Below are positions 1,616 to 20,944 of a stretch of DNA of 41,366 bases, piece by piece (the first letter of the stretch is position 1; each line of letters begins with the position of its first letter). The translations under genes and the position numbers were made by a program. The stretch comes from an uncultured Atribacterota bacterium (lineage in GTDB: Bacteria > Atribacterota > Phoenicimicrobiia > Phoenicimicrobiales > Stramentimicrobiaceae), in contig CAZPII010000001.1 of the NCBI GenBank assembly GCA_964586485.1, forward strand, positions 68,334-109,699. Reading direction: 5' to 3'. Under the pieces are notes generated by a model, which saw only the letters and a list, made by a program, of their open reading frames with translations, had not been told where the DNA came from and searched no databases.

Positions 1616-1669
1616 TATACTATATAATAATTCTTATGATGTTAATAAAATTATATAAAGGAGTATATA

Positions 1670-2143: not shown

Positions 2144-2156
2144 AAAGGAGCAATTA

Positions 2157-3512
2157 ATGGCAAAATTTGGTTCACAGACAAGAAAAAGTATTAAGGAAAA
2201 TAAATCAACTGATGGTGATGGTGTACCATTTTTAAAAGAAATATGTCCTAGAAAAATTCATCCTTTAAAACAAGAAGGCGCTATATATAATATGGGCGCG
2301 CACTATGTTTCGATTGTTAAAAAGTCTGAAGTTAATAATCGAACAGTGAAAGAAATAGGAAAAATAAGTCATATTTGTTTAGAGGAAACAAATAAAGGCT
2401 GTCCACTTTGTGATTTATTGAGGTATTTAAATAGGTCTGGTGAGTATGATGGTGATGATGTTGTCTTAGAAGTTGGGGAAGGACGGCTTAAAACTGGTTT
2501 TACTGTTGATCAGCTTCTCGGCAAGACAAATGATTTTAGATCAAGTATTAAAGCCGCAACTAACACAATGATTACTTATGTTGACCATGATGCTCCTGAG
2601 GATGGTCATAAAAGATTTATTGGTCCCAAATCAATTGTGGATAAGATAGATGATGAAATCATAACAATAACAGAAGAATATTATCCAGATGATCCTGATA
2701 AGGGTGATGTTTTATTTGGGTCTGGTAATTATGCATTAAAATTAACATATGATGCCAATGCTAAGAATAAAAGTGACATATATAAAGTTAAAGCCCTTAA
2801 AGATCGTAAGGCAACTTCAGCTATTAAAAAACAGATGAAAAAATCTATTGATGATCCTGCTGAATTTACAAAAAAACCTGATCGAAAAGCTATGTTAGAA
2901 TATATGTGGGAGCATTTTGATAAAGATTTATTAATAGCTGCTGGCATTGAAGAACTTTCGGATAATGAAAATGAGACAAAAAAATCAAAGAAGAAAAATA
3001 GAAGAAATAAATCAAAAATAAAACGTTCTAAGAGATCAGAAGATATTGATGAAATAGATGATATCGATGACGTCATGGATGAAGACGATGATGAAGAAGA
3101 TGATGAAAAAGATGAAAAAACAAATCGTAGAACTAGAAGGATAAAAGGTAAACTAAGAAAAAAATATTATGATGACGATGAAGAAGAAGATGAAGAAGAT
3201 GAAGAAGAAGATGATGAGGACGATGATGAGGATGATATAAAATCATCAAGGAAAAAATCATCGCGCAAGAAACAAACTAAAAGAAATAAGACTAGAAGAA
3301 GAACAAATGATGAAGAAGATGAGGACGATGAAGAAGATGAGGATGATGATATTAAATCATCAAAGAAATCATCTAAAAAGAAATCAGTAAGTAAAAGGCG
3401 TGACGGAGATATTGTCGAGTGTCCACATTGTTTTGTTGACCTAGATGAAGATGAAATAGAGCTCGACGAATGTCCAGCGTGTGGTGGTGATCTTATGGGG
3501 CTAGATGATTAA
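2157..3512 (+). CDS. putative T4 gp32-like ssDNA-binding protein with a long D/E-K/R low-complexity region and a C-terminal zinc ribbon
   Basis: AAGGAG RBS. It sits between the polymerase and the RecA-like gene. HIC-x7-CPLC resembles the His/Cys3 zinc site of gp32, and GNYALKLTY resembles a gp32 core strand. Residues ~270-410 are alternating K/R and D/E runs. It ends with CPHC-x13-CPAC. Assignment by eye only. Confidence 0.45.
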   Translation: MAKFGSQTRKSIKENKSTDGDGVPFLKEICPRKIHPLKQEGAIYNMGAHYVSIVKKSEVNNRTVKEIGKISHICLEETNKGCPLCDLLRYLNRSGEYDGDDVVLEVGEGRLKTGFTVDQLLGKTNDFRSSIKAATNTMITYVDHDAPEDGHKRFIGPKSIVDKIDDEIITITEEYYPDDPDKGDVLFGSGNYALKLTYDANAKNKSDIYKVKALKDRKATSAIKKQMKKSIDDPAEFTKKPDRKAMLEYMWEHFDKDLLIAAGIEELSDNENETKKSKKKNRRNKSKIKRSKRSEDIDEIDDIDDVMDEDDDEEDDEKDEKTNRRTRRIKGKLRKKYYDDDEEEDEEDEEEDDEDDDEDDIKSSRKKSSRKKQTKRNKTRRRTNDEEDEDDEEDEDDDIKSSKKSSKKKSVSKRRDGDIVECPHCFVDLDEDEIELDECPACGGDLMGLDD

Positions 3513-4687
3513 TGGTAAAGAAAAAGAACGTTAAAAAAGAACAAACTAATAATGAAAATAATATATATAATATCTTTTTTTCAGACAAAGCTGAGCACCA
3601 GCCGTTACCTGAATTAAAACTAGCTACTTCATTACCGGCATTAAACAGGGCTTTGACGATTGGCGGGTTTCCCGCCGGTTGTCTTGCCGAATTTCATGGA
3701 CCTAATGGCTATGGTAAATCAACATTATCAGCTTTAATTATGGCTGATGTAGGAAGGCAAAATCACCTTGGATTTTTTATTGACCCTGAGAGATCCATAG
3801 ATAAAAAATATTATCAAAGTATGGGTGTTGATTTTAAAAAGACACCCAGATATACTATATCTATTCTTGAGGATTTGATGAGATTTGTTTACGACAAGAT
3901 TGAAGAATTTCATGCTTTGAAAGAAGATGGTTATTCTGTGACTGAGAATGGTAAACAGGTAAAGAAAAAGCTTGATGAAAATAAAATCTTAGTTATTGTT
4001 ATTGATACTATTACTGTAACAGTAACAGCCGATGAAGAAGATGATTTTAAAAAAGGTTATCCTGCTAAAACCGGATTAATCACTAAATTTATTGAGCGTT
4101 TATTGAGTAAAATTAGTAATGATGTCCTTATAATAATGGTGAATCAAGAGCGCGATGTTTTAAACAAATTCACGCCTTATAGTGAAGACACAAGAAGCTG
4201 GGGTGGCCATTCTATAAGACATAATTGCTCTGTTAGAATTAGGGCGCAACGAAGGGCCAAGGATTATGATTCTTCTAAATCTTCATTATGCGGGTATAGA
4301 CTTGATTTAGTTGTTAAAAAATGTAAAAATGTCGGCGCATTAGATGAATGCTTCTCTGTTTTTGTTTCTAATGGAAAAGGTAAGTGCTTAATAGGTCATG
4401 ATGATGTTAAAGAATTGGTTTCAGAAGCTATTCATCAAGGTATTATTAAAAAATCAGGTAAAACAAATCATATTTTACCTGAAGAACTTGTTGATGATCA
4501 GGATAATGAAGTTTGTGTTGGTGTTTATCGTACTTATGATTGGTTTAGAAATAGACCAGATAAACTTGATATGTTGAGGGATATTTTGAATGATAATATT
4601 AAAAATATAAATCCTTATTCCAGATATTTGGAGAAAGACAATAGTGAAATTAAGGTTAAAAATTTTAAACGCAAAAAGTTAGATTAA
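3512..4687 (+). CDS. RecA/UvsX-family recombinase
   Basis: GGFPAGCLAEFHGPNGYGKSTLSALIMA...GFFIDPERSIDKKYYQSMGVDF aligns by eye with the RecA Walker A region ([22 protein letters not shown]...FIDAEHALDP..A..LGVD). Walker B-like LVIVIDTI. TAATG overlap with the upstream gene. Confidence 0.85.
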   Translation: MVKKKNVKKEQTNNENNIYNIFFSDKAEHQPLPELKLATSLPALNRALTIGGFPAGCLAEFHGPNGYGKSTLSALIMADVGRQNHLGFFIDPERSIDKKYYQSMGVDFKKTPRYTISILEDLMRFVYDKIEEFHALKEDGYSVTENGKQVKKKLDENKILVIVIDTITVTVTADEEDDFKKGYPAKTGLITKFIERLLSKISNDVLIIMVNQERDVLNKFTPYSEDTRSWGGHSIRHNCSVRIRAQRRAKDYDSSKSSLCGYRLDLVVKKCKNVGALDECFSVFVSNGKGKCLIGHDDVKELVSEAIHQGIIKKSGKTNHILPEELVDDQDNEVCVGVYRTYDWFRNRPDKLDMLRDILNDNIKNINPYSRYLEKDNSEIKVKNFKRKKLD

Positions 4688-4744
4688 TATTGTTATGCTT
4701 TTATTCTTGTTATAATAAAATATACAATATATAAGGAGCAAAAA

Positions 4745-5803
4745 ATGAATAAAATCGCTGTCATTGGCGATATACATTATGGTATCAATTTTGGCCCATA
4801 TTCGCGTGAGACTGAAATTGATAAAAGTTTAGAATATATAACTCAAAAAATAAAAGATGACGGGGCCGATTGCTGTATCTTTTTAGGCGACGTGTTTCAT
4901 TCAGATCGTCCATATCCTTATTTGTTGACTAAATTCAGGAATGTGATTAAAAAATTAAATCACATTCCTGTTTATATTTTGGTTGGCAATCATGATTGGT
5001 CTAAACAGAGTGAAAAACATGCATTGCTCGGTCTTGAATCAGGTGATAATCTTTTTATTATTGATAAAGAAATTATTGTTTCAAATAATGGTTATAAATT
5101 CATGCTTTTGCCATACAGATATGATCCTGATTTTTTGAAAAATAATTCTGATTCTAAAACTATTATTTTTTCTCATAGAGATATCGCCTATGTTAAAAAG
5201 GATCATTTTAAAGATGTTGATTTTTACTTAAATTTGAACGGTCATGAACATACGCCGCTTGATTCTGGTAAAACATATAATGTTGGTTCTATTTTAAGAT
5301 TTACTATGGCTGAAAAATCGGATAAGAAACGATTTATGTATCTTGAATTTAATAAAGATAAGAAATATAAATTATCAAGTATATCTAAGCCATGTAGAAA
5401 ATTATATAATGTAGATATAGATTTCGAGAAAAAACTAATTAAAGTTAATAATAAATTAGTTTTTAAAATTAAGAATTATAATATAATTCCGAGTAAAAAT
5501 AATAAAGCTTATAAGAATTTTTTAAACTCTAAAAATGCATATTTAGATTTAAATATTAAGTTTAAATCTAATAAAGATGTATCTGATAAACGACTTGATT
5601 CTGTTATTGAAGAAATAATTCAAAAGGGTCTTGTTAGAAAGAAAATAATTTTATTTGAAGATACTCATCGTGAGCCAAGGAATGTATTGGTTTCAAATAC
5701 TCCAAAAAGTATGATTGAAGAATATATTAATATCAACTATACAAATGAAAAAAAGAAACAGCAATTAATTGACTTAGCCTATGAGGTAGTTGATGATGAT
5801 TAA
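4745..5803 (+). CDS. Mre11/SbcD-family nuclease (calcineurin-like metallophosphoesterase)
   Basis: Phosphoesterase motifs in order: IAVIGDIHYG, FLGDVFH, VGNHD, NGHEH. It directly precedes and overlaps the Rad50-like gene. Confidence 0.8.
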   Translation: MNKIAVIGDIHYGINFGPYSRETEIDKSLEYITQKIKDDGADCCIFLGDVFHSDRPYPYLLTKFRNVIKKLNHIPVYILVGNHDWSKQSEKHALLGLESGDNLFIIDKEIIVSNNGYKFMLLPYRYDPDFLKNNSDSKTIIFSHRDIAYVKKDHFKDVDFYLNLNGHEHTPLDSGKTYNVGSILRFTMAEKSDKKRFMYLEFNKDKKYKLSSISKPCRKLYNVDIDFEKKLIKVNNKLVFKIKNYNIIPSKNNKAYKNFLNSKNAYLDLNIKFKSNKDVSDKRLDSVIEEIIQKGLVRKKIILFEDTHREPRNVLVSNTPKSMIEEYININYTNEKKKQQLIDLAYEVVDDD

Positions 5804-7919
5804 AAAAATAACTATAAATAATTTTATGCCTTTTTATGGACATAATGAAATCGAACTAGAAAAAGGCATAATTAATGTTATAGGGCAATGGTCCGAGAGC
5901 AAAAATAGATCAAATAGGGCCGGCAAATCGTCGTTTATTGAAGCCATTGTATATTGTTTGTATGGCGAATGTCGTGCCAAAAAAGAAATAGAAGCAATTA
6001 ATGATCTTGCAGAGGATTCAATGTATGTAAAACTTGAATTAGAAACTGATTTAGGTGAAATTGAGATTATTAGGGGTAGAAGTTTAAAAAATACTAAATT
6101 GTTAGAGATATCAGGTGTAGATATAACGCAATATAATTCACCACAAGATTGTATTAACGAAATAATAGGACTAGATTATAACAGTTTTGTTTTATCGAGT
6201 TATTTTGCTCAGGGCGATATTAATTCCTTTATGGAATTAAGCCTAGCAGATAAAAAGAGAAAATTAAGCAATTGGATTCAAGTTGCTAATTGGGCTAATT
6301 ACGAAAAGAAAGCAAAAGATAAATTGGTTGAATTGAATGTTTCAATTGATAGAATAATTGGCTCAATTGAGTCATTTGAAAAACAATTAGATGGTTTAAA
6401 AAATATTAAATCTAAAAAAGAAATAAGAAATCTTTTAAAACTAGAAGAGAATGAGATTGCTAATTATAGAAAAAGATTAGATAAATTAACTTATTCCTTG
6501 GGCCAACTAGATCAAGATTTGGAATCTAAAATTGATCGTTTAAATAATGATTTAGAGGATTTGAAAGATGAAATAGAGCATTTGTCTTCAGAATTTAAAA
6601 AGAGCTTTAATAAAGAAAAAGTATTAAAAAAGTTAACTATTGAGCGTAAAAAAATTATTAGTGAATTAAAAGATTTTAAAACTAAAAATACCAAAGAAGA
6701 ATTATCTAAAAAATTAGATATGTTGGAAAAATTTTATAATAAATATAATGCAGAAATTATTTCTCTTAATAAACAAATTCAAAAATATTCTAATATTGTT
6801 AAATCTGATTCAAAAATTTGTCCTATATTGAATGAAGAATGTGATAGAATTTCATCTAAAGCTTTAAAACCTATTATAATTGATCTTAAAAATAAGAAGG
6901 ACTTATTGTCTCAAAAATTTAATAATGTTGATAAAAATATTAATAATGTCTCTAGCAAGAAATTGGTTCTTGAAAATTTAAGAAAAGATATTGAACAGAT
7001 TAATTTTCAAATTAATAATTTGAAAGATCTTGATATTGACAGTGAGCATTTAAAGAATAAAATAAAGTTAAAATTTAAAAAATCAGATGAATTACGTAAT
7101 GAATTAGAAACCATTAAGAAAAAGAATGAAAAACTTGAGGACGAAATTGAATTTAAAGAGAAAATAATATCAGAAGCTAAAACAAGTATTTCAGCTTGTG
7201 AAAAAAATATAAGACATTATAACCAGATTTTAAATGAAATAGATGCTCAAATTGAAACAAAAAAAGGACTTAAGGTTTCACTTAAAACGAGTATTAAAAA
7301 GAAAGATGAATTATTAGATTTATCTATGCAATATAAATTTATTCAAGCTATGTTTTCAAAAGATGGTATACCAATGATGGAAATAAATAATAGTATGGAT
7401 GAGTTGGAAAATTATATTAATATGATTTTATCTAAACTAAATACAAATTTAAGTATACAAGTTACTACAGAAAAGAAATTAACAACTTATGAAGAATTTT
7501 GTAGTTGTGGTTATATGTTTATTAATTCTTCTCAACGTATATGTGATGAATGTCAATGTAGGAGGATGAAAAAAACAAGGTCTGATTTTGATATTATTTT
7601 ATATAGTGGTGGAAAAATTTTACCATTTGAACTTGATTCTGGTGGCGGCAAATCGTTAATTTCAATAGCTATTAGGTTAGCCGTTATCAAGATGCTTAAA
7701 AACAGAAGTAAAATTAATTTTAATATTTTGATTTTAGATGAAATATTTGGTATGCTAGATGAAGTTAATAGATCAAGCGTCGCTTCTTTATTAGTTGATA
7801 TTATTAGAGAAGATTTTGATCAAATATTTGGAATAACACATATTGATATACCGATAACTGGAGATCAAGATATATATATTATTAAAGAAGAAAATTACTC
7901 AAGATTAGAGGTAAGATGA
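5790..7919 (+). CDS. Rad50/SbcC-family ATPase
   Basis: N-terminal P-loop (NRAGKSSF). About 450 aa of heptad-rich coiled coil with a central CPILNEEC cysteine pair. ABC signature LDSGGGKSLISIAIRLA, Walker B ILILDE, H-loop GITH. Paired with the Mre11-like gene. Confidence 0.85.
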   Translation: MMMIKKITINNFMPFYGHNEIELEKGIINVIGQWSESKNRSNRAGKSSFIEAIVYCLYGECRAKKEIEAINDLAEDSMYVKLELETDLGEIEIIRGRSLKNTKLLEISGVDITQYNSPQDCINEIIGLDYNSFVLSSYFAQGDINSFMELSLADKKRKLSNWIQVANWANYEKKAKDKLVELNVSIDRIIGSIESFEKQLDGLKNIKSKKEIRNLLKLEENEIANYRKRLDKLTYSLGQLDQDLESKIDRLNNDLEDLKDEIEHLSSEFKKSFNKEKVLKKLTIERKKIISELKDFKTKNTKEELSKKLDMLEKFYNKYNAEIISLNKQIQKYSNIVKSDSKICPILNEECDRISSKALKPIIIDLKNKKDLLSQKFNNVDKNINNVSSKKLVLENLRKDIEQINFQINNLKDLDIDSEHLKNKIKLKFKKSDELRNELETIKKKNEKLEDEIEFKEKIISEAKTSISACEKNIRHYNQILNEIDAQIETKKGLKVSLKTSIKKKDELLDLSMQYKFIQAMFSKDGIPMMEINNSMDELENYINMILSKLNTNLSIQVTTEKKLTTYEEFCSCGYMFINSSQRICDECQCRRMKKTRSDFDIILYSGGKILPFELDSGGGKSLISIAIRLAVIKMLKNRSKINFNILILDEIFGMLDEVNRSSVASLLVDIIREDFDQIFGITHIDIPITGDQDIYIIKEENYSRLEVR

Positions 7920-8596
7920 TGGATAATAATCCCGGTAAATGGACACAAGAAGAAGACAACATACTCATTACTAGGTATAATATTGTTAAAAAGTCTCTAA
8001 TAATGAAATTATTACCAAAACGATCTTGGAAATCTATTAAACGCAGGGCTATTTATCTTAGAATAACTGGGCAATCAGTTTCAAATAAATATTATAAAGT
8101 TGATAAAAACACTGTTAAACTTAAGATAAGAACTCGTGGAACCGGAACTCATTCATTTATTTTTGATAAAAGTGATTATAAAAGGGTTAAGAATTTTACT
8201 TGGTATGTTAATACTGCACATGAGGGCAGGCCACACGCTGTTGCTAAATCAGCAGAGACTAATTTTAAAACACTAAGATTAAGTCGTTTTATTATGGAGA
8301 TCCCCGAAGGGTCTGGATCTATAATTAGTTTTAAAGATGGTAATACTCTTAATTGTAAGAAAAATAATTTATTAATAGGTGACAGGTCGCTTGTTAGATA
8401 TGTTAATGAAAAGCCGAATAAAAATAATTCTTTGGGTATTAAGGGTGTTTATTATGATAAAAAGAAAGATAAATATCGGGTAGAATTTAGAATAAATGGT
8501 AAACTAAGATATTTTGGCATTTTTAAAGAACTTAGAGAGGCGAAAAGTGTGGCAAAAAATGTAAGGGCTAAAATTATAAGCGGGGATATTAGATGA
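7916..8596 (+). CDS. Myb/SANT-like + HNH_3-like + AP2 DNA-binding domain protein (homing-endonuclease-like)
   Basis: KWTQEEDNIL...SWKSIKRRAIYL (Myb/SANT pattern). FKDGNTLNCKKNNL (HNH_3-like, but Phe where the His is expected). GIKGVYYDKKKDKYRVEFRINGKLRYFGIFKELREA (AP2 pattern). ATGA overlap with the Rad50-like gene. Confidence 0.55.
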   Translation: MMDNNPGKWTQEEDNILITRYNIVKKSLIMKLLPKRSWKSIKRRAIYLRITGQSVSNKYYKVDKNTVKLKIRTRGTGTHSFIFDKSDYKRVKNFTWYVNTAHEGRPHAVAKSAETNFKTLRLSRFIMEIPEGSGSIISFKDGNTLNCKKNNLLIGDRSLVRYVNEKPNKNNSLGIKGVYYDKKKDKYRVEFRINGKLRYFGIFKELREAKSVAKNVRAKIISGDIR

Positions 8597-9237
8597 AGGA
8601 AATGAAACCAGAAGATATAACAGTTGGAATTGATTTGTCCTTGTGGCAAACAGCTTATGTTTTTGTTAAAGATCAAGAATTTAAAGATTTTCTTATATCA
8701 GTTAATTCAAATAAAGATTTAATATCTGACAATTGCTATCTTATTGATAAGAATTATTATAAAGATAAGCCTTTTTATTTAATTGAGGTAATAAAGAGAC
8801 ATGTAAATGTTTTAGATGATTTAATATCGAGTGGTTTTAGAAATTTTTCTATTGAAGGCCAGAGTTTTCTTAGTAATAATAAGAATTTATGGGTCGATAT
8901 ATATCCGATATTTAGGTATGTCTTAGCTACTAATAATTGTAATTATGTTTTTACTTCCCCTCTTTCAGTTAAGAAATTTCTTTTGGGCAAATGCGAAAAG
9001 GGCAAAGGAAATATTTCTTTAGCTTGTTATAAAAAGTATGATCTTGATTTTAGCATATTTGGAGAATATTCTAATAATATATATGATGCCCTTGGTGTCG
9101 CTATGTTAGGTGATCTTTTTTTTAAAAAAATGTATAATAGAAGATTACCAGATTTACTTAAATACGAAAATGAATGCTTAGAATCAATGTTTAAAAAGGG
9201 GAACAAGACAATTTTTTATGTTTCAAAGAGCAGCTAA
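8593..9237 (+). CDS. RuvC-like Holliday junction resolvase (RNase H fold), putative
   Basis: N-terminal VGIDLSL and C-terminal YDALGVAMLG resemble the first and last acidic motifs of RuvC-type resolvases. Located in the recombination module. Confidence 0.5.
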   Translation: MKEMKPEDITVGIDLSLWQTAYVFVKDQEFKDFLISVNSNKDLISDNCYLIDKNYYKDKPFYLIEVIKRHVNVLDDLISSGFRNFSIEGQSFLSNNKNLWVDIYPIFRYVLATNNCNYVFTSPLSVKKFLLGKCEKGKGNISLACYKKYDLDFSIFGEYSNNIYDALGVAMLGDLFFKKMYNRRLPDLLKYENECLESMFKKGNKTIFYVSKSS

Positions 9238-9688
9238 AAAGCATAAAACATTTTATGTTTTGTATTGCCATAAATGCACAGATAGTATTATATCCAGACT
9301 ATCAGACAATAGTATAAATTATTATTTTATTGAAGATTTTAAAAGTCCTATTAGATCTTATATTTTTATCCCAACTTCTCAAGTTTTTGATTTAAAACAA
9401 ATTAGTAAAATTGATGGTGTTTATTTTTTAACTAGAATAGGAGATGATATTCCGGCTACAATATCGGGTAATGATCTTTTATCTATAGTGAATAAAGACA
9501 AGAGAGCAAAAGATTTTATTGGTAAACTTGTTAAAATAAAAACCGGCAGATTAAAGGGTATGTCAGGAAAATGTACTTATTCTAATAAAAATAAGCTTCA
9601 TGTTTGTATGTATTTGTTTAATGGCAGGATGACTACTGTTAAAAATGTTCCTATTTCAAGTGTGGTAGAATTAAAAGAATGTTATTAG
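9218..9688 (+). CDS. NusG/Spt5-like protein (NGN-like N-terminus + KOW motif), putative
   Basis: GKLVKIKTGRLKGMSGKCTY fits the KOW pattern G-x-V-x-I-x2-G-x2-G-x2-G. N-terminal FYVLYC resembles the NGN first strand. Confidence 0.4.
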   Translation: MFQRAAKKHKTFYVLYCHKCTDSIISRLSDNSINYYFIEDFKSPIRSYIFIPTSQVFDLKQISKIDGVYFLTRIGDDIPATISGNDLLSIVNKDKRAKDFIGKLVKIKTGRLKGMSGKCTYSNKNKLHVCMYLFNGRMTTVKNVPISSVVELKECY

Positions 9689-10446
9689 ATAATTGTGATA
9701 AGGATAAAGTTTTTTATATTATACAAACATTTCTTACTGATAAGGAAAGAAGTCTTATTATTGATTATTATTATGATAATTATACTTCTCTTAGGAAAAT
9801 AGCTTTTATTTATAATATGAACCATACTACGGTAAAATATAATATTGATAAGATAATTAATAGAATTCAAGATTATCTTGATATTTATGACGAGCTAGAG
9901 GATATTTCAAATGATAATTTGTTTTTAATAAATTTAGATTGTTATGATGTTCAGATTTTGTTTTATATGATATTGCTGTATAATAATAAAACTATTAAAA
10001 AATTAATGAGAATAGGCTCTGATCATTTAGCTAAAAGAATTAAAAGAATTAAGAATCTTTTAGAGTTGGATTATCCAGTTATATATAATAAACTATTTTG
10101 TATGAGGAAGAAATTTATTAAGATGGGAGTTGCTTATATGTCTTTAACAGATTATGATTTTCCACTTTATACAATCAGAGATAAGAGCGGTAAGCTTTAT
10201 TCTTTAGAAAAAGAAAAAATATTATTATATAGTGATAAAAGAAAAGTCCTTGAGATCATTAGTGCTTCTAATAAAACATTAAAAAAACAAATTTATGATA
10301 TTTATATGATAGATAGTTTGGCTCATTTTATATCTGTTTTTAATAGGGGTAATGATTCATTTGAAATAGTGAAAGAAAGAGGTGAAAGAATTGTCATTGA
10401 TAATAAAAATATTGGTGAGCTTTCTCGATTTGATACCTCAAGATAA
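9679..10446 (+). CDS. HTH regulator with sigma-70 region-4-like motif(s)
   Basis: LTDKERSLIIDYYYDNYTSLRKIAFIYNMNHTTVKYNIDKIINRIQDYL fits the region 4.2 pattern. A second weaker copy is KTIKKLMRIGSDHLAKRIKRIKNLL. Confidence 0.4.
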   Translation: MLLDNCDKDKVFYIIQTFLTDKERSLIIDYYYDNYTSLRKIAFIYNMNHTTVKYNIDKIINRIQDYLDIYDELEDISNDNLFLINLDCYDVQILFYMILLYNNKTIKKLMRIGSDHLAKRIKRIKNLLELDYPVIYNKLFCMRKKFIKMGVAYMSLTDYDFPLYTIRDKSGKLYSLEKEKILLYSDKRKVLEIISASNKTLKKQIYDIYMIDSLAHFISVFNRGNDSFEIVKERGERIVIDNKNIGELSRFDTSR

Positions 10447-10684
10447 ATTAGAGCATTTTGGATATTATCGATTACAAAAAGATGATATTTTTGTTACTGA
10501 TTCAAAATATTGTTGTCTTTTCAGGAAGAGCGGCAGTAATAATAACATGATTGAAGAAGTAATTATTAGTGACGATTACGGTGGCGTTGTTTCGTTAACT
10601 GTATTCGAAGCACAAAATTTGTTTACTAGATTTTTTAAAGAGATAGAAAGGAAAAGATATAATGTTAGAAAGGTCAATAACTAA
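10382..10684 (+). CDS. hypothetical protein; start codon uncertain
   Basis: Open frame bridging the regulator gene and queD. It overlaps the upstream gene by 65 nt from its GTG start. The first in-frame ATG is only at about 10546. Confidence 0.3.
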   Translation: MKELSLIIKILVSFLDLIPQDKLEHFGYYRLQKDDIFVTDSKYCCLFRKSGSNNNMIEEVIISDDYGGVVSLTVFEAQNLFTRFFKEIERKRYNVRKVNN

Positions 10685-11066
10685 AATATTTAAATTTGAT
10701 TCAGCTCATTATTTGCCTTCCCATGATGGTAAATGCGCTAATTTACACGGCCACACTTATGAACTACATATTACTGTTTGTGGTAAATTATCTGAACATG
10801 GTCCAGAAAAAGGTATGATTATGGATTTTGGGCATTTAAAAAATGTGGTTAATAATGAAATTATTTCAAAACTTGACCATAAAAATTTAAATGAACTTTT
10901 TGAAAATCCAACCGCAGAAGTTATGTGTGATTGGATATATTGTCAGTTAAATTCTTCTTTTGGACTTAATGATTCTTCGCCTTTTGGTCTTAATTTTTAT
11001 TTAAAAAAAATAAGACTTTATGAGACACCTACTTCTTATTGCGAGATTGAGTTTAAACCATGTTAA
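10662..11066 (+). CDS. queD: 6-carboxy-5,6,7,8-tetrahydropterin synthase
   Basis: FKFDSAHYLP...DGKCANLHGHTYEL...LDHKNLNE are QueD/PTPS signature segments. Size is 134 aa. AAGGAA RBS. Confidence 0.85.
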   Translation: MLERSITKIFKFDSAHYLPSHDGKCANLHGHTYELHITVCGKLSEHGPEKGMIMDFGHLKNVVNNEIISKLDHKNLNELFENPTAEVMCDWIYCQLNSSFGLNDSSPFGLNFYLKKIRLYETPTSYCEIEFKPC

Positions 11067-11148
11067 ATCGTTAATTTATATAACATTTTATTTTATAATT
11101 CTAAAATTTGTTATAAAATATATTTGTTAATAAATTGAGGTAATAATT

Positions 11149-11391
11149 ATGTTTAATTTGCAAAGATTAAAAAATGATTTAAATCATTTAGATTTAAAAG
11201 ATACAATTAATTGGTCTAAAAGATTTATTGAAAGACGGGATCTTTATAAATCTTGCGAATTATGTAAAAGAGAAGCGTCTTATATTTTCTCCAGAACATC
11301 GAAAATATCAAATAATACATATGAACATGTTTTTTGTTTTTCCTGTTTAATGTATTATTTTAAAAATGAAGAATTTAAATTAGTTGGGTGA
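11149..11391 (+). CDS. small zinc-ribbon-like protein
   Basis: 80-aa ORF with a GAGG RBS. CELC...CFSC cysteine pairs. Confidence 0.5.
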   Translation: MFNLQRLKNDLNHLDLKDTINWSKRFIERRDLYKSCELCKREASYIFSRTSKISNNTYEHVFCFSCLMYYFKNEEFKLVG

Positions 11392-11393
11392 TT

Positions 11394-12035
11394 ATGAGAA
11401 AAAGTGGTTATATTCAAACTTACACAGGTGATGGAAAAGGTAAGACAACTGCTGCTTTTGGTATGTTATTAAGAGGTGTTTCTGAAAATTGGAAAATATA
11501 TGTAGTTCAATTTATGAAGGGGGATCCATTATTTGATTACGGTGAGATTAGGGCTTGTGAGAAGTTTAAAGATGTAAAAATTTATCAATGCAGGATGGAT
11601 GCAGCTCTTATTATAAAAATGCTTCAAGGTGATGCCGACGCAAAAAAAGAATGTTCTCAAAAAGCTCGTTATGCTTGGTCAAGATGTGTTAATGAAATTT
11701 TAAATAATGAATATGACTTAGTTTTAATGGATGAGATTTTGCCGGTTGTTGATAATAATTTGCTTGAAATTTCTGAATTAATTCATTTTTTAAAAAACAA
11801 ACCGGATTTATTAGAAGTTGTTTTGACTGGAAGAATGAAAAACCCTGAATTAATTAGTAATATCAGGCTTGTTTCGGATTATTGTACAAAAATGGATTGT
11901 TTAGAGCATCCATTTCATAAAAAATGTCCAAATTGTGGTCATATTTTTATAGGCGAAAAGGCAAGTTACATAGGGTGCCCTTATTGTCTTATTGAATTAG
12001 AGCAGGTTTTTGCTAGAAAAGGAATAGAGTTTTGA
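11394..12035 (+). CDS. CobA/CobO/BtuR-family P-loop protein (ATP:cob(I)alamin adenosyltransferase-like) with a zinc-ribbon insertion
   Basis: YTGDGKGKTTAAFG, VVQFMKG, LVLMDEI, EVVLTGR and the terminal ARKGIEF track E. coli BtuR (FTGNGKGKTTAAFG, VVQFIKG, VVLDEL, VIITGR, GIDY) along the whole length. CPNCGHIF...CPYC is inserted before the C-terminal motif. The ORF could also start at GTG 11388. Confidence 0.8.
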   Translation: MRKSGYIQTYTGDGKGKTTAAFGMLLRGVSENWKIYVVQFMKGDPLFDYGEIRACEKFKDVKIYQCRMDAALIIKMLQGDADAKKECSQKARYAWSRCVNEILNNEYDLVLMDEILPVVDNNLLEISELIHFLKNKPDLLEVVLTGRMKNPELISNIRLVSDYCTKMDCLEHPFHKKCPNCGHIFIGEKASYIGCPYCLIELEQVFARKGIEF

Positions 12036-12322
12036 TTTGTATTTTTAAGAAATCAGATAAAACAAATAGAATAGATGTTGATTTTGGTCTTGGTACTGTT
12101 GCTATTAGTTTATTTGATGATGATAAAACTTCTTTGGTACTTCACGTTTGTAAGCGTGTTTCCAAGAACGAAACTGGCAAAACTATAACATCTTTTTATA
12201 AAGATTTTCCAGCTTCACATGAAATTTTTTTAAATTTTATGTCCGTTGAATCAATAGATTATTTAATTAAAATGTTAAATATGTTAAAAGAAAGGAAATT
12301 AAATGATATCCAAAATAAATGA
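12032..12322 (+). CDS. hypothetical protein
   Basis: 96-aa ORF with a TTG start overlapping the upstream stop. No motif recognised. Confidence 0.4.
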   Translation: MICIFKKSDKTNRIDVDFGLGTVAISLFDDDKTSLVLHVCKRVSKNETGKTITSFYKDFPASHEIFLNFMSVESIDYLIKMLNMLKERKLNDIQNK

Positions 12323-12551
12323 ACATACAGATTTTTTACCAAGAGATTTAAGATTATGTATTGGTAAAGAAAAATTAAGATTTAATAATAAAATTATCGA
12401 TACGATAGGACCAGATGTTATTAATAATGAGGTTTTGAAGTTATTAATTTCAGAAATTTATGATGATGGTTTAAATATGGGATTTTATATTAAAGATAAA
12501 TTCAATGAGCTTAAAGGCGAGGGCTTTCAAGAAATGAGAAAAAATGGCTAA
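12303..12551 (+). CDS. hypothetical protein
   Basis: 82-aa ORF with an ATG after AAAGGAAA. Overlaps its neighbours. Confidence 0.45.
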   Translation: MISKINEHTDFLPRDLRLCIGKEKLRFNNKIIDTIGPDVINNEVLKLLISEIYDDGLNMGFYIKDKFNELKGEGFQEMRKNG

Positions 12552-13119
12552 GACAACAAATAATATAGATCTTTATAAGTCTAATCGTGATAATTGGCAA
12601 ACTCCACCATTTATTATTGAATGTTTGTTGAAACATTTTAAAATAAAGCGATTTGATTATGATTTGTGTTGTGATCAATTCAATATCCCTGCAAAACGTT
12701 ACATAACGAAAAACGGAATATATAGGTTAAAATTGAAGCAAAACAGTGTGATTAAGGTTTCTAATAATGATTATTTTAAATCTAATTTCAGTGGTTTGTG
12801 TTATATGAATCCTGTTTTTAAAATTACAGATAAATTTTTAAAAAAGCTGGTAGAAAATAAAAAAGACTGTAATGTTGTAGCTTTATTACCGGTTAGAACC
12901 AACTGTGTTTATTGGCATGATCTTGTTTTTAATAAAGCATCGGCTATATTTTTCTTTAAGAGGAAAATTAATTTTTATATAGATAATCATTCTGTTTGTG
13001 GTGACGGGAATCCTTCGCCTATATGTTTAGCATTTTATAATTTTAAATATGATAAAATAAAAGATATTTATTTTGAGAAACATGAGCTTGACGGAACTAT
13101 GATAAAATTGGAGAATTAA
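12544..13119 (+). CDS. phage Dam-family (N6-adenine DNA methyltransferase-like) protein with an atypical NPVF motif
   Basis: DNWQTPPFII, DYDLCCD, CYMNPVF, ALLPVRTNCVYWH and KINF follow the order of the phage N6A-methyltransferase family (W-x-TP ... D-x-D/A ... NPPY ... LLP-x-RT ... W). The catalytic tetrapeptide reads NPVF. Confidence 0.65.
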   Translation: MAKTTNNIDLYKSNRDNWQTPPFIIECLLKHFKIKRFDYDLCCDQFNIPAKRYITKNGIYRLKLKQNSVIKVSNNDYFKSNFSGLCYMNPVFKITDKFLKKLVENKKDCNVVALLPVRTNCVYWHDLVFNKASAIFFFKRKINFYIDNHSVCGDGNPSPICLAFYNFKYDKIKDIYFEKHELDGTMIKLEN

Positions 13120-16178: not shown

Positions 16179-17219
16179 ATGAAAAGAAAAGAAAAATTAT
16201 ATATAGTAGGTAATTTTTATCATCATAATGATACTATTTTAAAACCTATTTTAAATCAGGCTATTGATAGCGATTATTTTAAAGAAATAGAATGGGTTGA
16301 TCCAAAAAACTATGGATATATTGACGATGATAGGTCTTACTCTTATTGGTCTGATCCTATATTGACATATAATTTTTGGAACGCTCAAATAAAAGGATTG
16401 CTTGGCGTTAATGGAGAGAAACTTGTTGATAATTCTTCTATTTTATTATTAGAGTTTTGGAATCCTTTAATTGAAATAGTCAGATATTTTATTGACGCTA
16501 AAGGTTTGAAGGATATTATATTCTCTGCAATTATGCATAGTAGTTGTAATATACCACTTGATCATGGTCAATACCTCCAAAATTGGGGTTATTTTAGTGA
16601 AGCTAGTTGGCAAAAATGTTTAGATAAAATATTTGTTACCGATTCGCAATCTTATAAATATTGTGAGTTCAATAATGCTATTGTTTCTTATTTACCATAT
16701 GATAGCGACTGGACCCCTTGTGATAAAAAAAATCAGGTTGTTGCTTGTATTTCTAATGACAAGAGAAGTAGTTATATGTTTTTTAGATTTAAAGAATTTG
16801 TTGAAAGAACAGATCCTGATTTAAAATTTATTATTGCTTCTCCAAAAACTCATAATAATTATTTCATTGAATTGCCAGATGGTGTTGAGAGATTATATTT
16901 AGACAGGAAAGAATATAATAAATTATTAGCTGAATCTAAATATTATTTTTGCTGGACTCATTTTGATAATTTTTGTCATGCAACGCTTGAGGCGTTTTTT
17001 AATAGGTGCTCTATGATTTTAAATCCTTATCCTTATCATAATGAAATATATCCTTATAGATATATTTATTCTAATATAGAAGAGGATTGGTGTAATGCTA
17101 TTGGCTCATCTGGTCCGCTTCCTGAAGAAATTGAATCTGTCAAACGTTTATTAGGAAAACCAGAAAAACTTATAGTTGATAATTTATATTACTCAGATTT
17201 AATCAGGAATTATTCGTAA
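16179..17219 (+). CDS. GT-B-fold glycosyltransferase-like protein, paralog 1
   Basis: 346 aa, the same length as the next gene. It shares FWNPLIE, H-S-S, YLPYD and LEAFF motifs with that gene. DNFCHATLEAFFNRCSMIL resembles a degenerate E-x7-E GT4 motif. Confidence 0.5.
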   Translation: MKRKEKLYIVGNFYHHNDTILKPILNQAIDSDYFKEIEWVDPKNYGYIDDDRSYSYWSDPILTYNFWNAQIKGLLGVNGEKLVDNSSILLLEFWNPLIEIVRYFIDAKGLKDIIFSAIMHSSCNIPLDHGQYLQNWGYFSEASWQKCLDKIFVTDSQSYKYCEFNNAIVSYLPYDSDWTPCDKKNQVVACISNDKRSSYMFFRFKEFVERTDPDLKFIIASPKTHNNYFIELPDGVERLYLDRKEYNKLLAESKYYFCWTHFDNFCHATLEAFFNRCSMILNPYPYHNEIYPYRYIYSNIEEDWCNAIGSSGPLPEEIESVKRLLGKPEKLIVDNLYYSDLIRNYS

Positions 17220-17247
17220 TTAAGTACTTAGATTAAAAGGAGGCTTT

Positions 17248-18288
17248 ATGAGGAAAGTGTATGTTTTGGGTAATCTTGGACTACATGGATCAACAATAGT
17301 TGATAAAATTACTTCTTATTTATCAACTGCCGTTCAGACTGAGGTGAGGTATAGTTGTGAATTTACTGGTGATACTAAACCTTGGAAGCTTCAATCTTTA
17401 GATCCAAATATTATTCTAAATTTTCAACATGTTTTAGAGCTTGATTTTTTTAATTCGCCAAGCACTATATTTTTTCCTGAGTTTTGGAATCCTTTAATTG
17501 AAACAGCAAGGATTTATGTTAATAATTACAAAAAAGATGTAAAATTAGTTGCTTTACACCATGGCTCAAGTCATGTTAATGGTGATCTTATGGCGACTAG
17601 TGTTGGAGAAGATTTATCAAGACATATGGAGTATTCTTGGTTAGCTTGTTTAGATTATTTATTAGTTGGCTCTCGATATGCAAAAGATTGTATTGTTAAA
17701 ATTCATCCTGAGTTTGAAAGTAAAATTATAGTTACTTATTTACCCTTTGATCCGCCAAAATTTATTGAGCGCAAAGAATATGCAGAAATAATTAAACCCA
17801 GTGGAAAAATATTGTTTCCTCACAGATTGTCGCAAGATAAGAATTGGGAAAGTGTTTATAATTTTATAAAATATGTTTTGAAACGTAAGGATCTTTATTT
17901 TACCACTGATGATTTTATTGTTTGTACTCCGATTGAGCCGCGCTATGCAATAAGGGAGATGTTTTCAAAACTTGGTGTTAGTATTAAGGCTTATAGCAGG
18001 AAACAATTTCATAATCAAATGTATTCTTGTCGTTATGTTTATAGTGATGCGTTGCAAGAAACATTTGGTTATTCTGTTTTAGAAGCATTTTTTAGCGGAT
18101 GTATACCGGTTTTAAGTCAACACCCGTTGTATCAAGAATTTTTCGGTTATGATATGTTATTTGAACCTGATAATCATTGTGATATTATTGAAAAAATGAA
18201 AAATTTAACTTATCCTTATATTATTAGAGATAGGTTGTTTAAACTTTTTGATTCAGCAGAGGAAAACATTGCTAAAATTTTGGTGTGA
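17248..18288 (+). CDS. GT-B-fold (GT4-like) glycosyltransferase, paralog 2
   Basis: ETFGYSVLEAFFSGCIPVLSQHPLYQEFF matches the C-terminal E-x7-E nucleotide-sugar-binding motif of GT1/GT4 enzymes. AAGGAGG RBS. Confidence 0.6.
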   Translation: MRKVYVLGNLGLHGSTIVDKITSYLSTAVQTEVRYSCEFTGDTKPWKLQSLDPNIILNFQHVLELDFFNSPSTIFFPEFWNPLIETARIYVNNYKKDVKLVALHHGSSHVNGDLMATSVGEDLSRHMEYSWLACLDYLLVGSRYAKDCIVKIHPEFESKIIVTYLPFDPPKFIERKEYAEIIKPSGKILFPHRLSQDKNWESVYNFIKYVLKRKDLYFTTDDFIVCTPIEPRYAIREMFSKLGVSIKAYSRKQFHNQMYSCRYVYSDALQETFGYSVLEAFFSGCIPVLSQHPLYQEFFGYDMLFEPDNHCDIIEKMKNLTYPYIIRDRLFKLFDSAEENIAKILV

Positions 18289-18291: not shown

Positions 18292-19155
18292 ATGAGAATT
18301 TATTTTAGTAGCGGGGTTATAGAGCGCCACACTTATGCTTTAAAAAAATGCAAAGTTAAAAATGGTCTTTTTAGTTATTTATTTATATTAAAAAGACCAG
18401 AATGCTTTAGTGAAACTGATTTTAAAAGCGTTATGGTTGATTCGGGCGCATATACATTTCTTGCTAATCCTAAAGAGATGGAGAAAAAATTTAAAACTAG
18501 GAATTCAAAAAGAGCATTATATAAATTTGTTGAAGAATATGTTCAATGGCTCTATGATAATACAGATAAATATGAATATGCTGTTGAGGTTGATTTATAT
18601 GATGCTTTTGGTGAAGATTTTATTTTTAGACTACATGAGGAATTTTTTAAACCATTTCAGAGGGATACAGGTAAAGAAGTTATTTTCGTTATGCAGGAAA
18701 GGGGTTTATCAGATTGGAATAAGCTCATTAAAGACCCTGAGATCAAATTTCTTGGTATTGGTAGTACCAATTCTTTATCGGTAAAAAATTATGTTTATTG
18801 GGTTTCAAAATGTATAAAATATAATAAAAAAGTTCATGGGTTTGCTATTACTAATTTAAAATATTTGTTAAGAATTCCTTTTTATAGTGTTGATTCTACA
18901 ACTTGGATGTCAAGTGATAAATATGGTGAACATTTCTTTTTTGATAAAAAAAACATGAAAATAAGAAGAATTTATTCTAGGAAGCCTGAATTACTTATTA
19001 AATATTACCCTCAAATGGCTGAAGATTATTCATTGCAGGAGTTAAAAGTAAAATATAAAAATGATGCCAGACTTTGTTTTGCTATTAAACAATTTCAAGA
19101 GGTTGAAGACTTTTGTACTGATATGTGGAAAAGAAAAGGTATTGATTATGACTGA
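18292..19155 (+). CDS. dpdA: DpdA-family (TGT-like) DNA 7-deazaguanine transglycosylase
   Basis: VMVDSGAYTF (TGT/DpdA DSG motif), KVHGFAIT and FYSVDSTTWMSSDKYG (DS-x-x-W motif). Located in the queD/E/C-folE cluster. Confidence 0.75.
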   Translation: MRIYFSSGVIERHTYALKKCKVKNGLFSYLFILKRPECFSETDFKSVMVDSGAYTFLANPKEMEKKFKTRNSKRALYKFVEEYVQWLYDNTDKYEYAVEVDLYDAFGEDFIFRLHEEFFKPFQRDTGKEVIFVMQERGLSDWNKLIKDPEIKFLGIGSTNSLSVKNYVYWVSKCIKYNKKVHGFAITNLKYLLRIPFYSVDSTTWMSSDKYGEHFFFDKKNMKIRRIYSRKPELLIKYYPQMAEDYSLQELKVKYKNDARLCFAIKQFQEVEDFCTDMWKRKGIDYD

Positions 19156-19485: not shown

Positions 19486-20232
19486 TTGGAAAAACCTATT
19501 AAGCTTTCGGATCGATTATTTATGGGCGTTATTGCGGTTAGTAATATACGGCCAAATAATTGGAATATAAATGTTCAAACCGAAAATACTTTTAATAAAT
19601 TAAAGCTTAGTGTTGATAAGCATGAAATGAATCAGACTTTAACCTTATTAAAAGATTATGATGAGGAAACTGATACTGAATATATTATCTTAAATGGTGA
19701 ACACAGATGGAAGGCAGCTAAGGATTTAGGTCTTGAACGTGTTCCTGCTGTTTTTTATGTCGACATGACGCCTGAAGAGGCTATTCAAATAACTTTAAAA
19801 TCTAATGAACTTAATGGTGATCCTGATATATATAAGTTACCTGAACGTTTGGAGCAAACAGGTTTAACTACGCAACAAATATTAGAAGAGTTTGAATGGA
19901 CTAAATCAGAGTTAGAAAATATATTTAGTATTTCTGATACTATAAATGATGAAGAATTTGTTATGCCTGAAACTGAAATGTCAGATGAGGAAGAAGAGCT
20001 TTTAGATGCTGAAAACAGATCAAAAGTAAGATTATCTTTTATGCTTGATCAGAAACAGTTTAATGAATTTTATGATTTAAAAAGAAAACTTGAATGCCTG
20101 ACTGATGATGATGCTTTTATTAGAATTTGTATGATATGCAAGCAAACTTTGAATAAAAATAAGAACAAAGTTAAAATAAAAGATGATATCGAATCCAATA
20201 ATGAATCTCGCAGGAGAAAAATAATTGAATAA
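19486..20232 (+). CDS. ParB/Srx-fold (ParB N-terminal nuclease-like domain) protein 1
   Basis: IILNGEHRWKAAKDLGLERVPAVF is the ParB GxxR box. Acidic linker (ETEMSDEEEELLD). TTG start after GGAGG. Confidence 0.7.
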   Translation: MEKPIKLSDRLFMGVIAVSNIRPNNWNINVQTENTFNKLKLSVDKHEMNQTLTLLKDYDEETDTEYIILNGEHRWKAAKDLGLERVPAVFYVDMTPEEAIQITLKSNELNGDPDIYKLPERLEQTGLTTQQILEEFEWTKSELENIFSISDTINDEEFVMPETEMSDEEEELLDAENRSKVRLSFMLDQKQFNEFYDLKRKLECLTDDDAFIRICMICKQTLNKNKNKVKIKDDIESNNESRRRKIIE

Positions 20233-20881
20233 AAAAATAGAATCTATTTCTATAAAGAATATTAAACCTAATAATTGGAATCCTAATGGTTTTAGTGAAT
20301 CTAGATTTAAAAAATTAATTAAAAGTATTGAAAAAGATGGCTTAATTAATCCGATTGTTGTTTATGATAATGATAAACAATTTGTTATTGTTGACGGAGA
20401 ACATCGTTTTAAAGCTTTTAAAGCTTTAAATAAGAAAAAGATTGATTGTTATGCCTTGGGCAAATTAGAGACACATGAAGCCCAAAGGCTTAATTATGTT
20501 TTGAATAAATTAAAAGGTGATACAGAAAATGAAGAAAAAGATTTTGAAATTATAACTAATCTTTTAGATAATTATGAATTAGAAGAGTTACTTAAAACCC
20601 TTCCTTATTCTGAGATTGAATTACAACAATATTTAGATGAGAAATTTGAAGATTTTGATGAAGAATCTGTTGCTAATGAATTAGATTCTGAGCCAGATGA
20701 ACCAAATATAAATATGGATAAAGTTGAAGATAAAAAGAATATTGTTAAGTTTTCAATTTCAGATGATGATTATACTGACTTTTGGCTTCAAATAGTTACA
20801 TTGTTTGATTCTGATGTTTCTAAAGATTCTATTTTTGTTGAAATATGTCGATCATATTTAGAGGTTATTGACGAAGGTTAA
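20225..20881 (+). CDS. ParB/Srx-fold protein 2 (paralog)
   Basis: IKNIKPNNWNPN and IVDGEHRFKAFKALNKKKIDCY parallel protein 1 (IRPNNWNIN, LNGEHRWKAAKDLG). Acidic linker. TTG start overlaps the upstream stop. Confidence 0.65.
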   Translation: MNKKIESISIKNIKPNNWNPNGFSESRFKKLIKSIEKDGLINPIVVYDNDKQFVIVDGEHRFKAFKALNKKKIDCYALGKLETHEAQRLNYVLNKLKGDTENEEKDFEIITNLLDNYELEELLKTLPYSEIELQQYLDEKFEDFDEESVANELDSEPDEPNINMDKVEDKKNIVKFSISDDDYTDFWLQIVTLFDSDVSKDSIFVEICRSYLEVIDEG

Positions 20882-20911
20882 TAAGCTTCCTTGAATATCT
20901 TTTACTCTGCA

Positions 20912-20944
20912 ATACACTTGAAAAATATCAAGTGTATTTTTTTT
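20912..20944 (+). terminator. Rho-independent terminator
   Basis: 10-bp perfect stem ATACACTTGA (20912-20921) / TCAAGTGTAT (20928-20937), 6-nt loop, then a run of 8 T. Confidence 0.8.

Follow-up and report, generated by a model that had tools for sequence, protein, structure and literature searches.

A GT4-like glycosyltransferase family linked to phage 7-deazaguanine DNA-modification genes, and a candidate sugar-tailoring step in that pathway

We analysed a 41-kb stretch of contig CAZPII010000001.1 (hereafter the window), which by its replication, portal and ligase genes is phage DNA and belongs to a genome of about 110 kb (109.7-kb contig). The subject is a pair of adjacent genes, here called P1 and P2, which lie within a cluster of genes for making 7-deazaguanine and inserting it into DNA. 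Pfam and PHROG scans covered 30 open reading frames (ORFs) between positions 29 and 29439. The deazaguanine genes form a single tightly packed block on the + strand, and the members around which the argument turns are the following (HMM, hidden Markov model; aa, amino acids):

10662-11066, + strand: QueD (6-carboxy-tetrahydropterin synthase, PTPS family); Pfam PTPS 118 bits, local QueD HMM 193 bits
13121-13768, + strand: QueE-like radical SAM protein (7-carboxy-7-deazaguanine synthase); Pfam Radical_SAM 34.5 bits, QueE HMM 221 bits
13768-14343, + strand: FolE (GTP cyclohydrolase I); Pfam GTP_cyclohydroI 211 bits
14752-16173, + strand: Gat-QueC fusion (class-II glutamine amidotransferase plus QueC) of the dPreQ0/archaeosine-synthase type; Pfam QueC 150 bits, GATase_7 46 bits
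16179-17219, + strand: P1, 346-aa ORF, GT-B-fold paralog with a degenerate nucleotide-sugar site
17248-18288, + strand: P2, 346-aa ORF, GT4-like GT-B protein with an intact donor-site signature
18292-19155, + strand: DpdA (DNA guanine transglycosylase), small type with the motif VDSGAYTF; phrog_887, E=1e-20

A transglycosylase of the DpdA/tRNA-guanine transglycosylase (TGT) superfamily is found here together with the preQ0-pathway genes QueD, QueE, FolE and Gat-QueC. By tblastn the window QueE matches the annotated QueE of ACP17 and BCSR5 and the window DpdA matches the annotated DpdA of BCD7, BS162P1 and BRock, and Gat-QueC is homologous over its whole length to the Nonagvirus/Seuratvirus 'dPreQ0 and archaeosine synthase' (coverage 97-98 %, E about 1e-43). 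The start of DpdA lies 3 nt past the stop of P2, and P2 is preceded by a strong Shine-Dalgarno (ribosome-binding) site, AAAGGAGG.

An earlier note on this DNA had described P1 and P2 as well-diverged paralogs of 346 aa each between Gat-QueC and DpdA, and this description held in full. Both ORFs have that length at 16179-17219 and 17248-18288, the two neighbours are confirmed by profile and homologue matches, and BLASTP aligns the proteins with 25 % identity over 324 columns (E=1e-16). FWNPLIE, YLP and LEAFF, listed there as shared, are present in both proteins, and ETFGYSVLE is present in P2 only, P1 having D-x7-E (D263-x7-E271). P1 and P2 are sisters in the family tree with 76 % bootstrap and long branches. 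Their nearest outside relatives (P0143-P0150) are 26-35 % identical to P2 versus 24-27 % to P1, and an exhaustive HMM search among 1.84 billion representatives gave no relative of P1 closer than P2.

The structures predicted by AlphaFold (pLDDT 81.8 and pTM 0.83 for P2, 83.4 and 0.82 for P1) both have the GT-B fold, with two Rossmann-like domains and an inter-domain cleft, and Foldseek matched them with probability 1.00 to many GT-B enzymes (TM 0.5-0.7). The best PDB matches of P2 were MshA, SenB, glycogen synthase, BshA and TarM, all retaining enzymes of the GT4 type, and those of P1 were Gtf3/GtfC, OtsA and BshA. The comparison with T4 glucosyltransferases and GT4 enzymes that the earlier note had proposed fell on the GT4 side, as T4 alpha-/beta-glucosyltransferase is outside the top 50 PDB matches of P1 and of P2. 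In BFVD, P2 was matched best by a 370-aa protein (TMq 0.82), which has the length of the BCSR5 homologue, and by the ACP17 homologue. Because the single sequences are borderline, we base the GT-B call on family-level profiles and the predicted structures. The Pfam profile Glycos_transf_1 is matched by 6 of 8 aligned family members (best E=6.8e-12), and the family profile matches group-1 glycosyltransferases (GTs) in the PDB, among them 5i45 at 3e-7.

The two proteins differ at the donor site. P2 has the residues H192-R193, K198, E271-T272-x-G274 and E279, which are invariant in the P2-like clade and give it the complete signature of Arg/Lys for the diphosphate plus E-x7-E. P1 does not show this signature; it has no H-R pair, and D263, N264 and C266 replace the E, T and G. 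The N-terminal motifs of the family, VGNFYHHNDTILKPI, FWNPLIE and H-S-S, are retained in P1. As judged from the model, P2 is probably a retaining, GT4-like GT-B glycosyltransferase, and its residues mark it as the conserved and probably catalytic copy. The two are probably not equivalent transferases, since P1 has lost donor-site residues.

We then consider how the wider family is distributed. The family is large and unannotated: a word-indexed search gave over 6,000 clusters at 90 %, and an exhaustive search 636 representatives at 50 % identity. P2 alone returned only itself in the word-indexed protein search and the relatives surfaced via alignments and the exhaustive HMM search; likewise, single-protein scans of IMG/VR found nothing and a tighter alignment of the P2 clade (A8) retrieved loci. 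Distant homologues were found by tblastn in Burkholderia phage BCSR5, Acidovorax phage ACP17, Xanthomonas phages BUDD, X1, PhiXhv-12/15/16 and Ep026, Erwinia phage Ep032 and PA5oct-like Pseudomonas jumbo phages. In all six cultured-phage loci inspected (BCSR5, ACP17, BUDD, X1, PhiXhv-15 and PAC2) the homologue sits within a Que/DpdA cluster, among FolE, QueD, QueE or QueC-type genes and adjoining the transglycosylase or Gat-QueC. These six phages belong to separate groups, and the metagenomic loci that were inspected show the same association.

Linkage was counted in IMG/VR on 66 loci (57 after removal of redundancy), for whose retrieval only GT peptide patterns were used. Of the 57, 53 (93 %) have a que or DpdA/TGT gene in the available flank: a que gene is present in 46, DpdA/TGT in 39 and both in 32. 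The median centre-to-centre distance is 1.1 kb. As a background, FolE occurs in 406 of 50,697 phage records, that is 0.8 %. Three of the four loci that have neither gene in the available flank are flank-poor (two 6-kb contigs and one with the GT near the contig end). Of the 39 loci with DpdA/TGT, 25 have the GT as the gene directly upstream of it. The earlier note had named closest homologues of the cell-envelope type, without dpdA linkage, as a result that would speak against its proposal; the closest homologues are nearly all located beside FolE/QueD/QueE/QueC and DpdA/TGT.

The GT accompanies the small DpdA and an unrelated TGT-like protein of about 430-540 aa alike. These larger proteins of jumbo phages have an invariant DSGGFQ, and all 42 of their 42 profile matches in the PDB are tRNA-guanine transglycosylases. 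Neither tblastn nor jackhmmer linked the window DpdA to them, and the small DpdA and the large TGT-like proteins are separate DpdA lineages. Linkage with both types of transglycosylase argues for a functional tie rather than an inherited gene order.

An intact copy accompanied by a donor-degenerate one is not confined to the window. A second two-copy lineage consists of twelve IMG/VR loci (L053, L062, L064, L072, L075, L077-L080, L082, L083 and L085), in which the family copies are about 4 kb apart; a residue-level comparison covered ten of them. The donor residues are intact in copy 'a', whose N-terminal motifs are altered. Copy 'b' shows the reverse, with its N-terminal motifs preserved and the equivalents of R193, K198 and E271 lost in nearly all ten compared loci. 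In the mapped loci (L053, L062, L078 and L080) copy 'b' lies immediately upstream of, or near, the TGT-like gene. The 'a' and 'b' copies of one locus are not linked by BLASTP at E<=1e-3. With P1/P2 and 'a'/'b' together, the intact-plus-donor-degenerate pair therefore arose at least twice, and its recurrence suggests a heteromeric enzyme with a putative non-catalytic subunit, for which GtfA/GtfB and QTRT1/QTRT2 are precedents. P1 itself appears to be an old duplicate, confined to the lineage of the window phage, which kept the acceptor-side motifs and lost key donor-binding residues. It is most likely a non-catalytic or altered-specificity partner of P2.

A syntenic locus on a contig of Logan SRR24236060 (L020) encodes QueD, QueE, FolE, Gat-QueC, a 256-aa protein, one P2-like GT (P0143) and DpdA, and has no P1 counterpart. 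Its Gat-QueC and DpdA are 40 % and 52 % identical to those of the window, and P0143 is 35 % identical to P2. The 256-aa protein (9132-9902) fills the slot of P1, contains a C-x6-C-x2-C motif and has a very weak radical-SAM match (E=0.07) as its sole match; it may be an alternative tailoring enzyme. We also observed that the DpdA ortholog of this locus (11125-12723) follows the window protein at 52 % identity over the first ~228 aa and is then interrupted past the SVDSS region. The insert is intein-like and carries a LAGLIDADG-type motif, LGLWIGDGH, which makes it an intein within a DNA transglycosylase gene.

P1 and P2 also share a 25-nt stretch, which the earlier note had pointed out:

16452-16476, + strand: 25-nt identical stretch, copy 1, encoding EFWNPLIE
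17479-17503, + strand: 25-nt identical stretch, copy 2, exactly identical to copy 1

The window does contain two exact occurrences of the stretch, GAGTTTTGGAATCCTTTAATTGAAA, and no more, one at 16452 and one at 17479; the identity stops at its ends. The encoded EFWNPLIE is the most conserved peptide of the family, and the chance that eight identical residues share all codons is about 0.016 under the codon usage of the window. Outside this peptide, 49 of the 79 residues identical between P1 and P2 have the same codon, where 46.6 are expected. As codon sharing elsewhere is at expectation, gene conversion was rejected as the source and the identity follows from the conservation of the protein in a genome that is AT-rich. 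Peptide conservation and codon bias account for it, so the stretch has no extra meaning.

Outside the phages, the nearest cellular relatives carry the Pfam domain QTMAN_N (8 of 10 outgroup matches), and with a query alignment lacking the PA5oct-type member the first matches beyond the phage family were all QTMAN_N proteins, at 175-189 bits. QTMAN/GTDC1 is a GT4-type tRNA-queuosine alpha-mannosyltransferase, whose acceptor is a 7-deazaguanine derivative (PMC11755703). Family and QTMAN profiles align with hhalign at 99.6 % (E=2e-24), with the common motifs HRW--DK-PE and ETFG--x-EA----P--P-RLSYPE, and the C-terminal donor-binding halves at 99.8 % (E=2e-28). P2 retains only Y295 and E297 of the P-x-R-L-S-Y-P-E motif. 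QTMAN_N (PF12038) was matched neither by P1 or P2 at E<=1 nor by any member of the A1 alignment at E<=0.1, and as the N-terminal halves do not align either, membership in the QTMAN family was rejected. The PDB holds no QTMAN structure for comparison. Because the similarity is restricted to the donor-binding half, it is silent on the acceptor. QTMAN thus resembles the phage family as a GT4 enzyme tied to deazaguanine chemistry, and among recognisable families outside the phage clade it is the nearest. QTMAN differs in that it transfers mannose from GDP-mannose to the cyclopentenediol of queuosine-34 in tRNA, a group that the phage pathway has no genes to make, and in that the phage family is linked to DpdA, which acts on DNA, and not to a tRNA TGT.

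Our preferred reading, to which we give a probability of roughly 0.6, is that P2 glycosylates a 7-deazaguanine derived from Gat-QueC, with P1 as an accessory or altered partner. P1 and P2 would be parts of a phage 7-deazaguanine DNA-modification operon made up of QueD, QueE, FolE, Gat-QueC, P1, P2, DpdA and two ParB-like genes. P2 would take a nucleotide-sugar from the host and transfer the sugar to the 7-deazaguanine unit supplied by Gat-QueC (preQ0, G+ or amido type), most plausibly to the nitrogen of the 7-substituent, and P1 would assist it or have changed specificity. The expected product is a glycosylated 7-deazaguanine in the phage DNA, a second protective layer comparable to the glucosylation of 5-hydroxymethylcytosine (hmC) by T4, and the sugar would shield the DNA from restriction, Dag glycosylases and END nucleases. 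From the placement of the genes, the earlier note had already suggested sugar decoration of a 7-deazaguanine derivative or its precursor; the proposal, still a prediction, now has the support of independent comparative evidence from fold and linkage.

Known systems provide parts of this scheme. The eight 7-deazaguanine DNA bases described so far carry a cyano, amido, amidino, aminomethyl, methyl, formyl or carboxy group or no substituent, and none bears a sugar (Cui et al. 2023, PMC10516641). The phage systems described there consist of DpdA1-4 with FolE/QueD/QueE/QueC, Gat-QueC and the tailoring enzymes DpdL/DpdM/DpdN, and no glycosyltransferase is mentioned (PMC10516641). The window shares with them a base made from GTP, insertion by DpdA and an extra tailoring enzyme encoded in the cluster, and its Gat-QueC and DpdA are homologous to theirs. 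The alpha- and beta-GTs of T4 are likewise GT-B proteins, encoded by a phage and adding a second-layer sugar to a modified base for counter-defence, but their acceptor is the hydroxymethyl of a pyrimidine, 5-hydroxymethylcytosine, and they have no sequence relationship to P1/P2. MshA, BshA and PIG-A work in modules with PIG-L; MshA and BshA rank high among the structural matches of P2 and a PIG-L gene flanks the GT in a sister clade, yet the acceptors of these enzymes are inositol, malate and phosphatidylinositol rather than a nucleobase, and the window itself has no PIG-L. HuiG glycosylates a preQ0-derived deazapurine with uridine diphosphate-N-acetylglucosamine, and the GTs of its family of biosynthetic gene clusters fall under PF13439 (bioRxiv 10.64898/2026.04.15.718813). 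GTs of the HuiG/dapiramicin type, which belong to actinomycete 7-deazapurine natural-product pathways, are encoded with the preQ0 pathway, and HuiG is a precedent for a GT that acts on such a base; one cellular member of our family (P0130) has a comparable cluster. The products of the actinomycete pathways differ in being small molecules for export, and neither DpdA nor DNA takes part.

Several observations weigh against our preferred reading. P2 alone scores 17 bits on Pfam Glycos_transf_1, for which the cutoff is 26.4, and P1 alone has no Pfam glycosyltransferase match. The N-terminal acceptor halves of the family do not align with QTMAN_N (hhalign probability 0.5 %, E=0.12). The family is acidic throughout (isoelectric point, pI, 5.2-6.4) and the closest solved structures act on small molecules, neither of which favours direct DNA binding. 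The scans found no sugar-nucleotide gene in the window, and local HMMs run across all window ORFs found no PIG-L, no Gfo/Idh/MocA and no third GT copy, so that the donor is without a local source; the analysis covers 41 kb, and about 68 kb of the genome lies beyond the window. The well-studied Gat-QueC phages (9g-like) do without any GT, and the gene linkage could reflect some other shared role in the pathway.

Regarding the order of steps, we tentatively give a slight preference to glycosylation on the DNA, after insertion by DpdA, over glycosylation of the free base, because known tRNA deazaguanine maturation and phage DNA glycosylation proceed in this way. The later steps on tRNA deazaguanines (archaeosine, queuosine and the QTMAN reaction) occur on the polymer, as do the known phage DNA glycosylations. 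This speaks against the other order, in which the GT would add the sugar in the cytoplasm to free 7-deazaguanine, or to a precursor of nucleoside or nucleotide type, and DpdA would then insert the glycosylated base, and DpdA would moreover have to accept a far bulkier base. The core claim is the same in both cases, and we regard the second order as only slightly less likely than the first; the probabilities given to the two are approximate and do not add up precisely to 0.6. Insertion of a ready-made glycosylated base would suit the uniformly acidic family, its small-molecule structural neighbours MshA, BshA and SenB, and the usual position of the GT immediately 5' of DpdA, which would allow hand-over of the product. 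The phosphoribosyltransferase (PRTase), HIT and GHMP-kinase genes of PA5oct-type clusters hint at small-molecule steps, and the cellular P0130 lies in a preQ0-pathway cluster with a major facilitator superfamily (MFS) exporter and no visible DpdA, which has the look of a natural-product cluster. HuiG, too, acts on the free deazapurine (bioRxiv 10.64898/2026.04.15.718813).

A further explanation is that the GT-B proteins do not transfer sugar. They would then support DpdA in a structural or regulatory capacity, for instance in DNA targeting, or perform a different reaction of the pathway. P1 and the 'b' copies have been kept despite the loss of their donor-binding residues, the 'b' copies adjoin the TGT, both P1 and P2 are under the Pfam GT thresholds and the GT gene is tightly coupled to DpdA. 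We nevertheless consider this improbable, as the complete R/K/E-x7-E donor signature is kept in P2, in the 'a' copies and, invariantly, in the P2-like clade, and as the family keeps company with sugar-tailoring enzymes.

O-antigen and teichoic acid are frequent targets of phage GT4 enzymes, and the acceptor might be something other than deazaguanine: the host envelope or lipopolysaccharide (in superinfection exclusion), a protein of the phage, or a hydroxymethyl-pyrimidine whose synthesis genes lie in the 68 kb outside the window. Such an acceptor would also accommodate the four loci of 57 without a que/DpdA gene in the available flank, but it is very unlikely. Linkage reaches 93 %, with a median of 1.1 kb and a background of 0.8 %, and extends across two DpdA types and many phage lineages; the genes are located in a replication and DNA-metabolism operon; T4 alpha/beta-GT stands outside the top 50 fold matches; and no gene of the thymidylate-synthase type was found in the 30 scanned ORFs (29 to 29439). 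The earlier note had reported such a hydroxymethylase as missing from the whole window, and its statement stands for these 30 ORFs.

In other members of the family, the GT has neighbours that could process a sugar further. PhiXhv-15 and the loci L013, L015 and L018 have a block of Gat-QueC, a FemAB/GNAT-like gene (sub-threshold), a PIG-L-family deacetylase, the GT and Gfo/Idh/MocA. In L017 and L019 we found Gat-QueC, PIG-L and the GT, followed by FolE in L017, and the contig of L019 ends after the GT. The PIG-L-bearing clade groups weakly with the window pair (40 % bootstrap). Pairing of a GT4 enzyme with a PIG-L deacetylase means 'transfer N-acetylglucosamine (GlcNAc), then deacetylate' in the synthesis of mycothiol, bacillithiol and glycosylphosphatidylinositol. 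The gene of about 260-300 aa beside Gat-QueC in this sister clade was considered as a DpdA and rejected, as it has no DSG motif and no HMM match; it gave only sub-threshold FemAB/GNAT-like matches. The wider module of PhiXhv-15 (456-9713), which also occurs in L013, L015 and L017-L019, includes Leu/Phe-tRNA-protein-transferase-like and GNAT/FemAB-like genes. By analogy, modules of this type hint at an elaborate sugar-amino-acid hypermodification with a mycothiol-like logic of GlcNAc transfer, deacetylation and amine acylation or aminoacylation.

Individual PA5oct-type clusters contain genes for Gfo/Idh/MocA, ADH_N, UDP-glucose dehydrogenase, GHMP kinase, epimerase, PRTase and HIT proteins, and a faint DegT match. 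In PA5oct-type jumbo phages and marine relatives (Pseudomonas phage vB_Pa-PAC2, 6148-11476; L007, L009 and L011), the large TGT-like gene, the GT and FolE are located just downstream of DNA polymerase B. A QueE/radical-SAM gene is present as well in L007 and PAC2, and no QueC was seen in the PA5oct-type flanks examined. The family member P0130 comes from a cellular metagenome-assembled genome (L014; GCA_020848905.1, JADLHG010000059.1, 1124-13230). Its cluster encodes an epimerase, DegT, QueC, FolE, QueE, QueD, a radical-SAM/SPASM protein, two Glyco_tran_28_C GTs, the family GT, an MFS transporter and a cupin, with no DpdA visible, and by analogy it is apparently a natural-product cluster for a glycosylated 7-deazapurine of the huimycin or dapiramicin type.

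A broader version of the proposal, which we hold at a little under even odds, is that many phages (the window phage, PA5oct, ACP17, BCSR5, BUDD/X1 and PhiXhv-15) carry glycosylated 7-deazaguanine DNA by means of a dedicated, DpdA-associated GT4-like family. Some lineages would use an intact plus a degenerate copy, and others would process the sugar by deacetylase, oxidoreductase and aminoacyl- or acyl-transferases.

The remaining features of the block and its end are the following:

11388-12035, + strand: ATP:corrinoid adenosyltransferase (CobA/CobO/BtuR); Pfam 150.6 bits
12544-13119, + strand: Dam-like N6-adenine methyltransferase; Pfam Dam 47 bits
19486-20232 and 20225-20881, + strand: two tandem, overlapping ParB-like genes; phrog_723, E=1e-15 and 6e-23
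20911-20938, + strand: best intrinsic-terminator-like hairpin, an 11-bp stem followed by a T-run; consensus match only

Between DpdA and the ParB-like pair there is only a small ORF. In the bacterial Dpd system a ParB-like protein, DpdB, goes with DpdA, and by this analogy the tandem genes possibly encode DpdB-like partners of DpdA. The hairpin is a possible end of the operon. A promoter scan gave 91 sites versus 76 expected and is uninformative in the AT-rich DNA of the window. With a Dam-like gene embedded in the cluster, the window phage may combine adenine methylation with guanine replacement. The corrinoid adenosyltransferase, placed between QueD and QueE and ending in a rubredoxin-like Cys cluster, is, with its possible B12 link, unusual inside a deazaguanine cluster; no counterpart was found in loci L001-L019. 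On the 5' side the block is preceded by genes for DNA polymerase III alpha and for RecA-like, Mre11-like and Rad50-like proteins, and on the 3' side it is followed by a portal protein and a NAD-dependent ligase. Megablast of 14-20 kb of the window gave no DNA match to GenBank phages and the portal protein is ~27 % identical to its best matches, on which grounds the window phage is novel.

Our literature search, which may miss subscription-only papers, found no report of a sugar on DNA deazaguanine, nor of a GT in phage DpdA clusters. To our knowledge, all phage DNA glycosylations are on pyrimidines. The sequences thus point to a candidate new tailoring branch of 7-deazaguanine DNA modification, operated by a new GT4 subfamily. 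This prediction is specific and testable, as the family is widespread and several of its carriers are in culture (PA5oct, ACP17, BCSR5, BUDD, X1 and PhiXhv-15). The recurring pairing of an intact with a donor-dead copy is a separate puzzle of protein evolution. In PA5oct, a phage explored for therapy, the DNA resists cutting at G-containing restriction sites and the modified G is chemically uncharacterised (PMC12191111); the family offers a route towards its identity. Deazaguanine DNA is itself a target of host defence, by the deazaguanine-directed END nucleases (PMC12191111) and by the host glycosylases (Dag) that attack plain deazaguanine DNA (bioRxiv 10.1101/2025.10.29.685425), and the sugar may be the answer of the phage to both, in parallel to the step from hmC to glucosyl-hmC in T4. 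A glycosyl-deazaguanine would join two themes, deazaguanine bases and DNA glycosylation, and extend the known scope of DpdA systems; if true, no purine analogue bearing a sugar would have been described in a genome before it.

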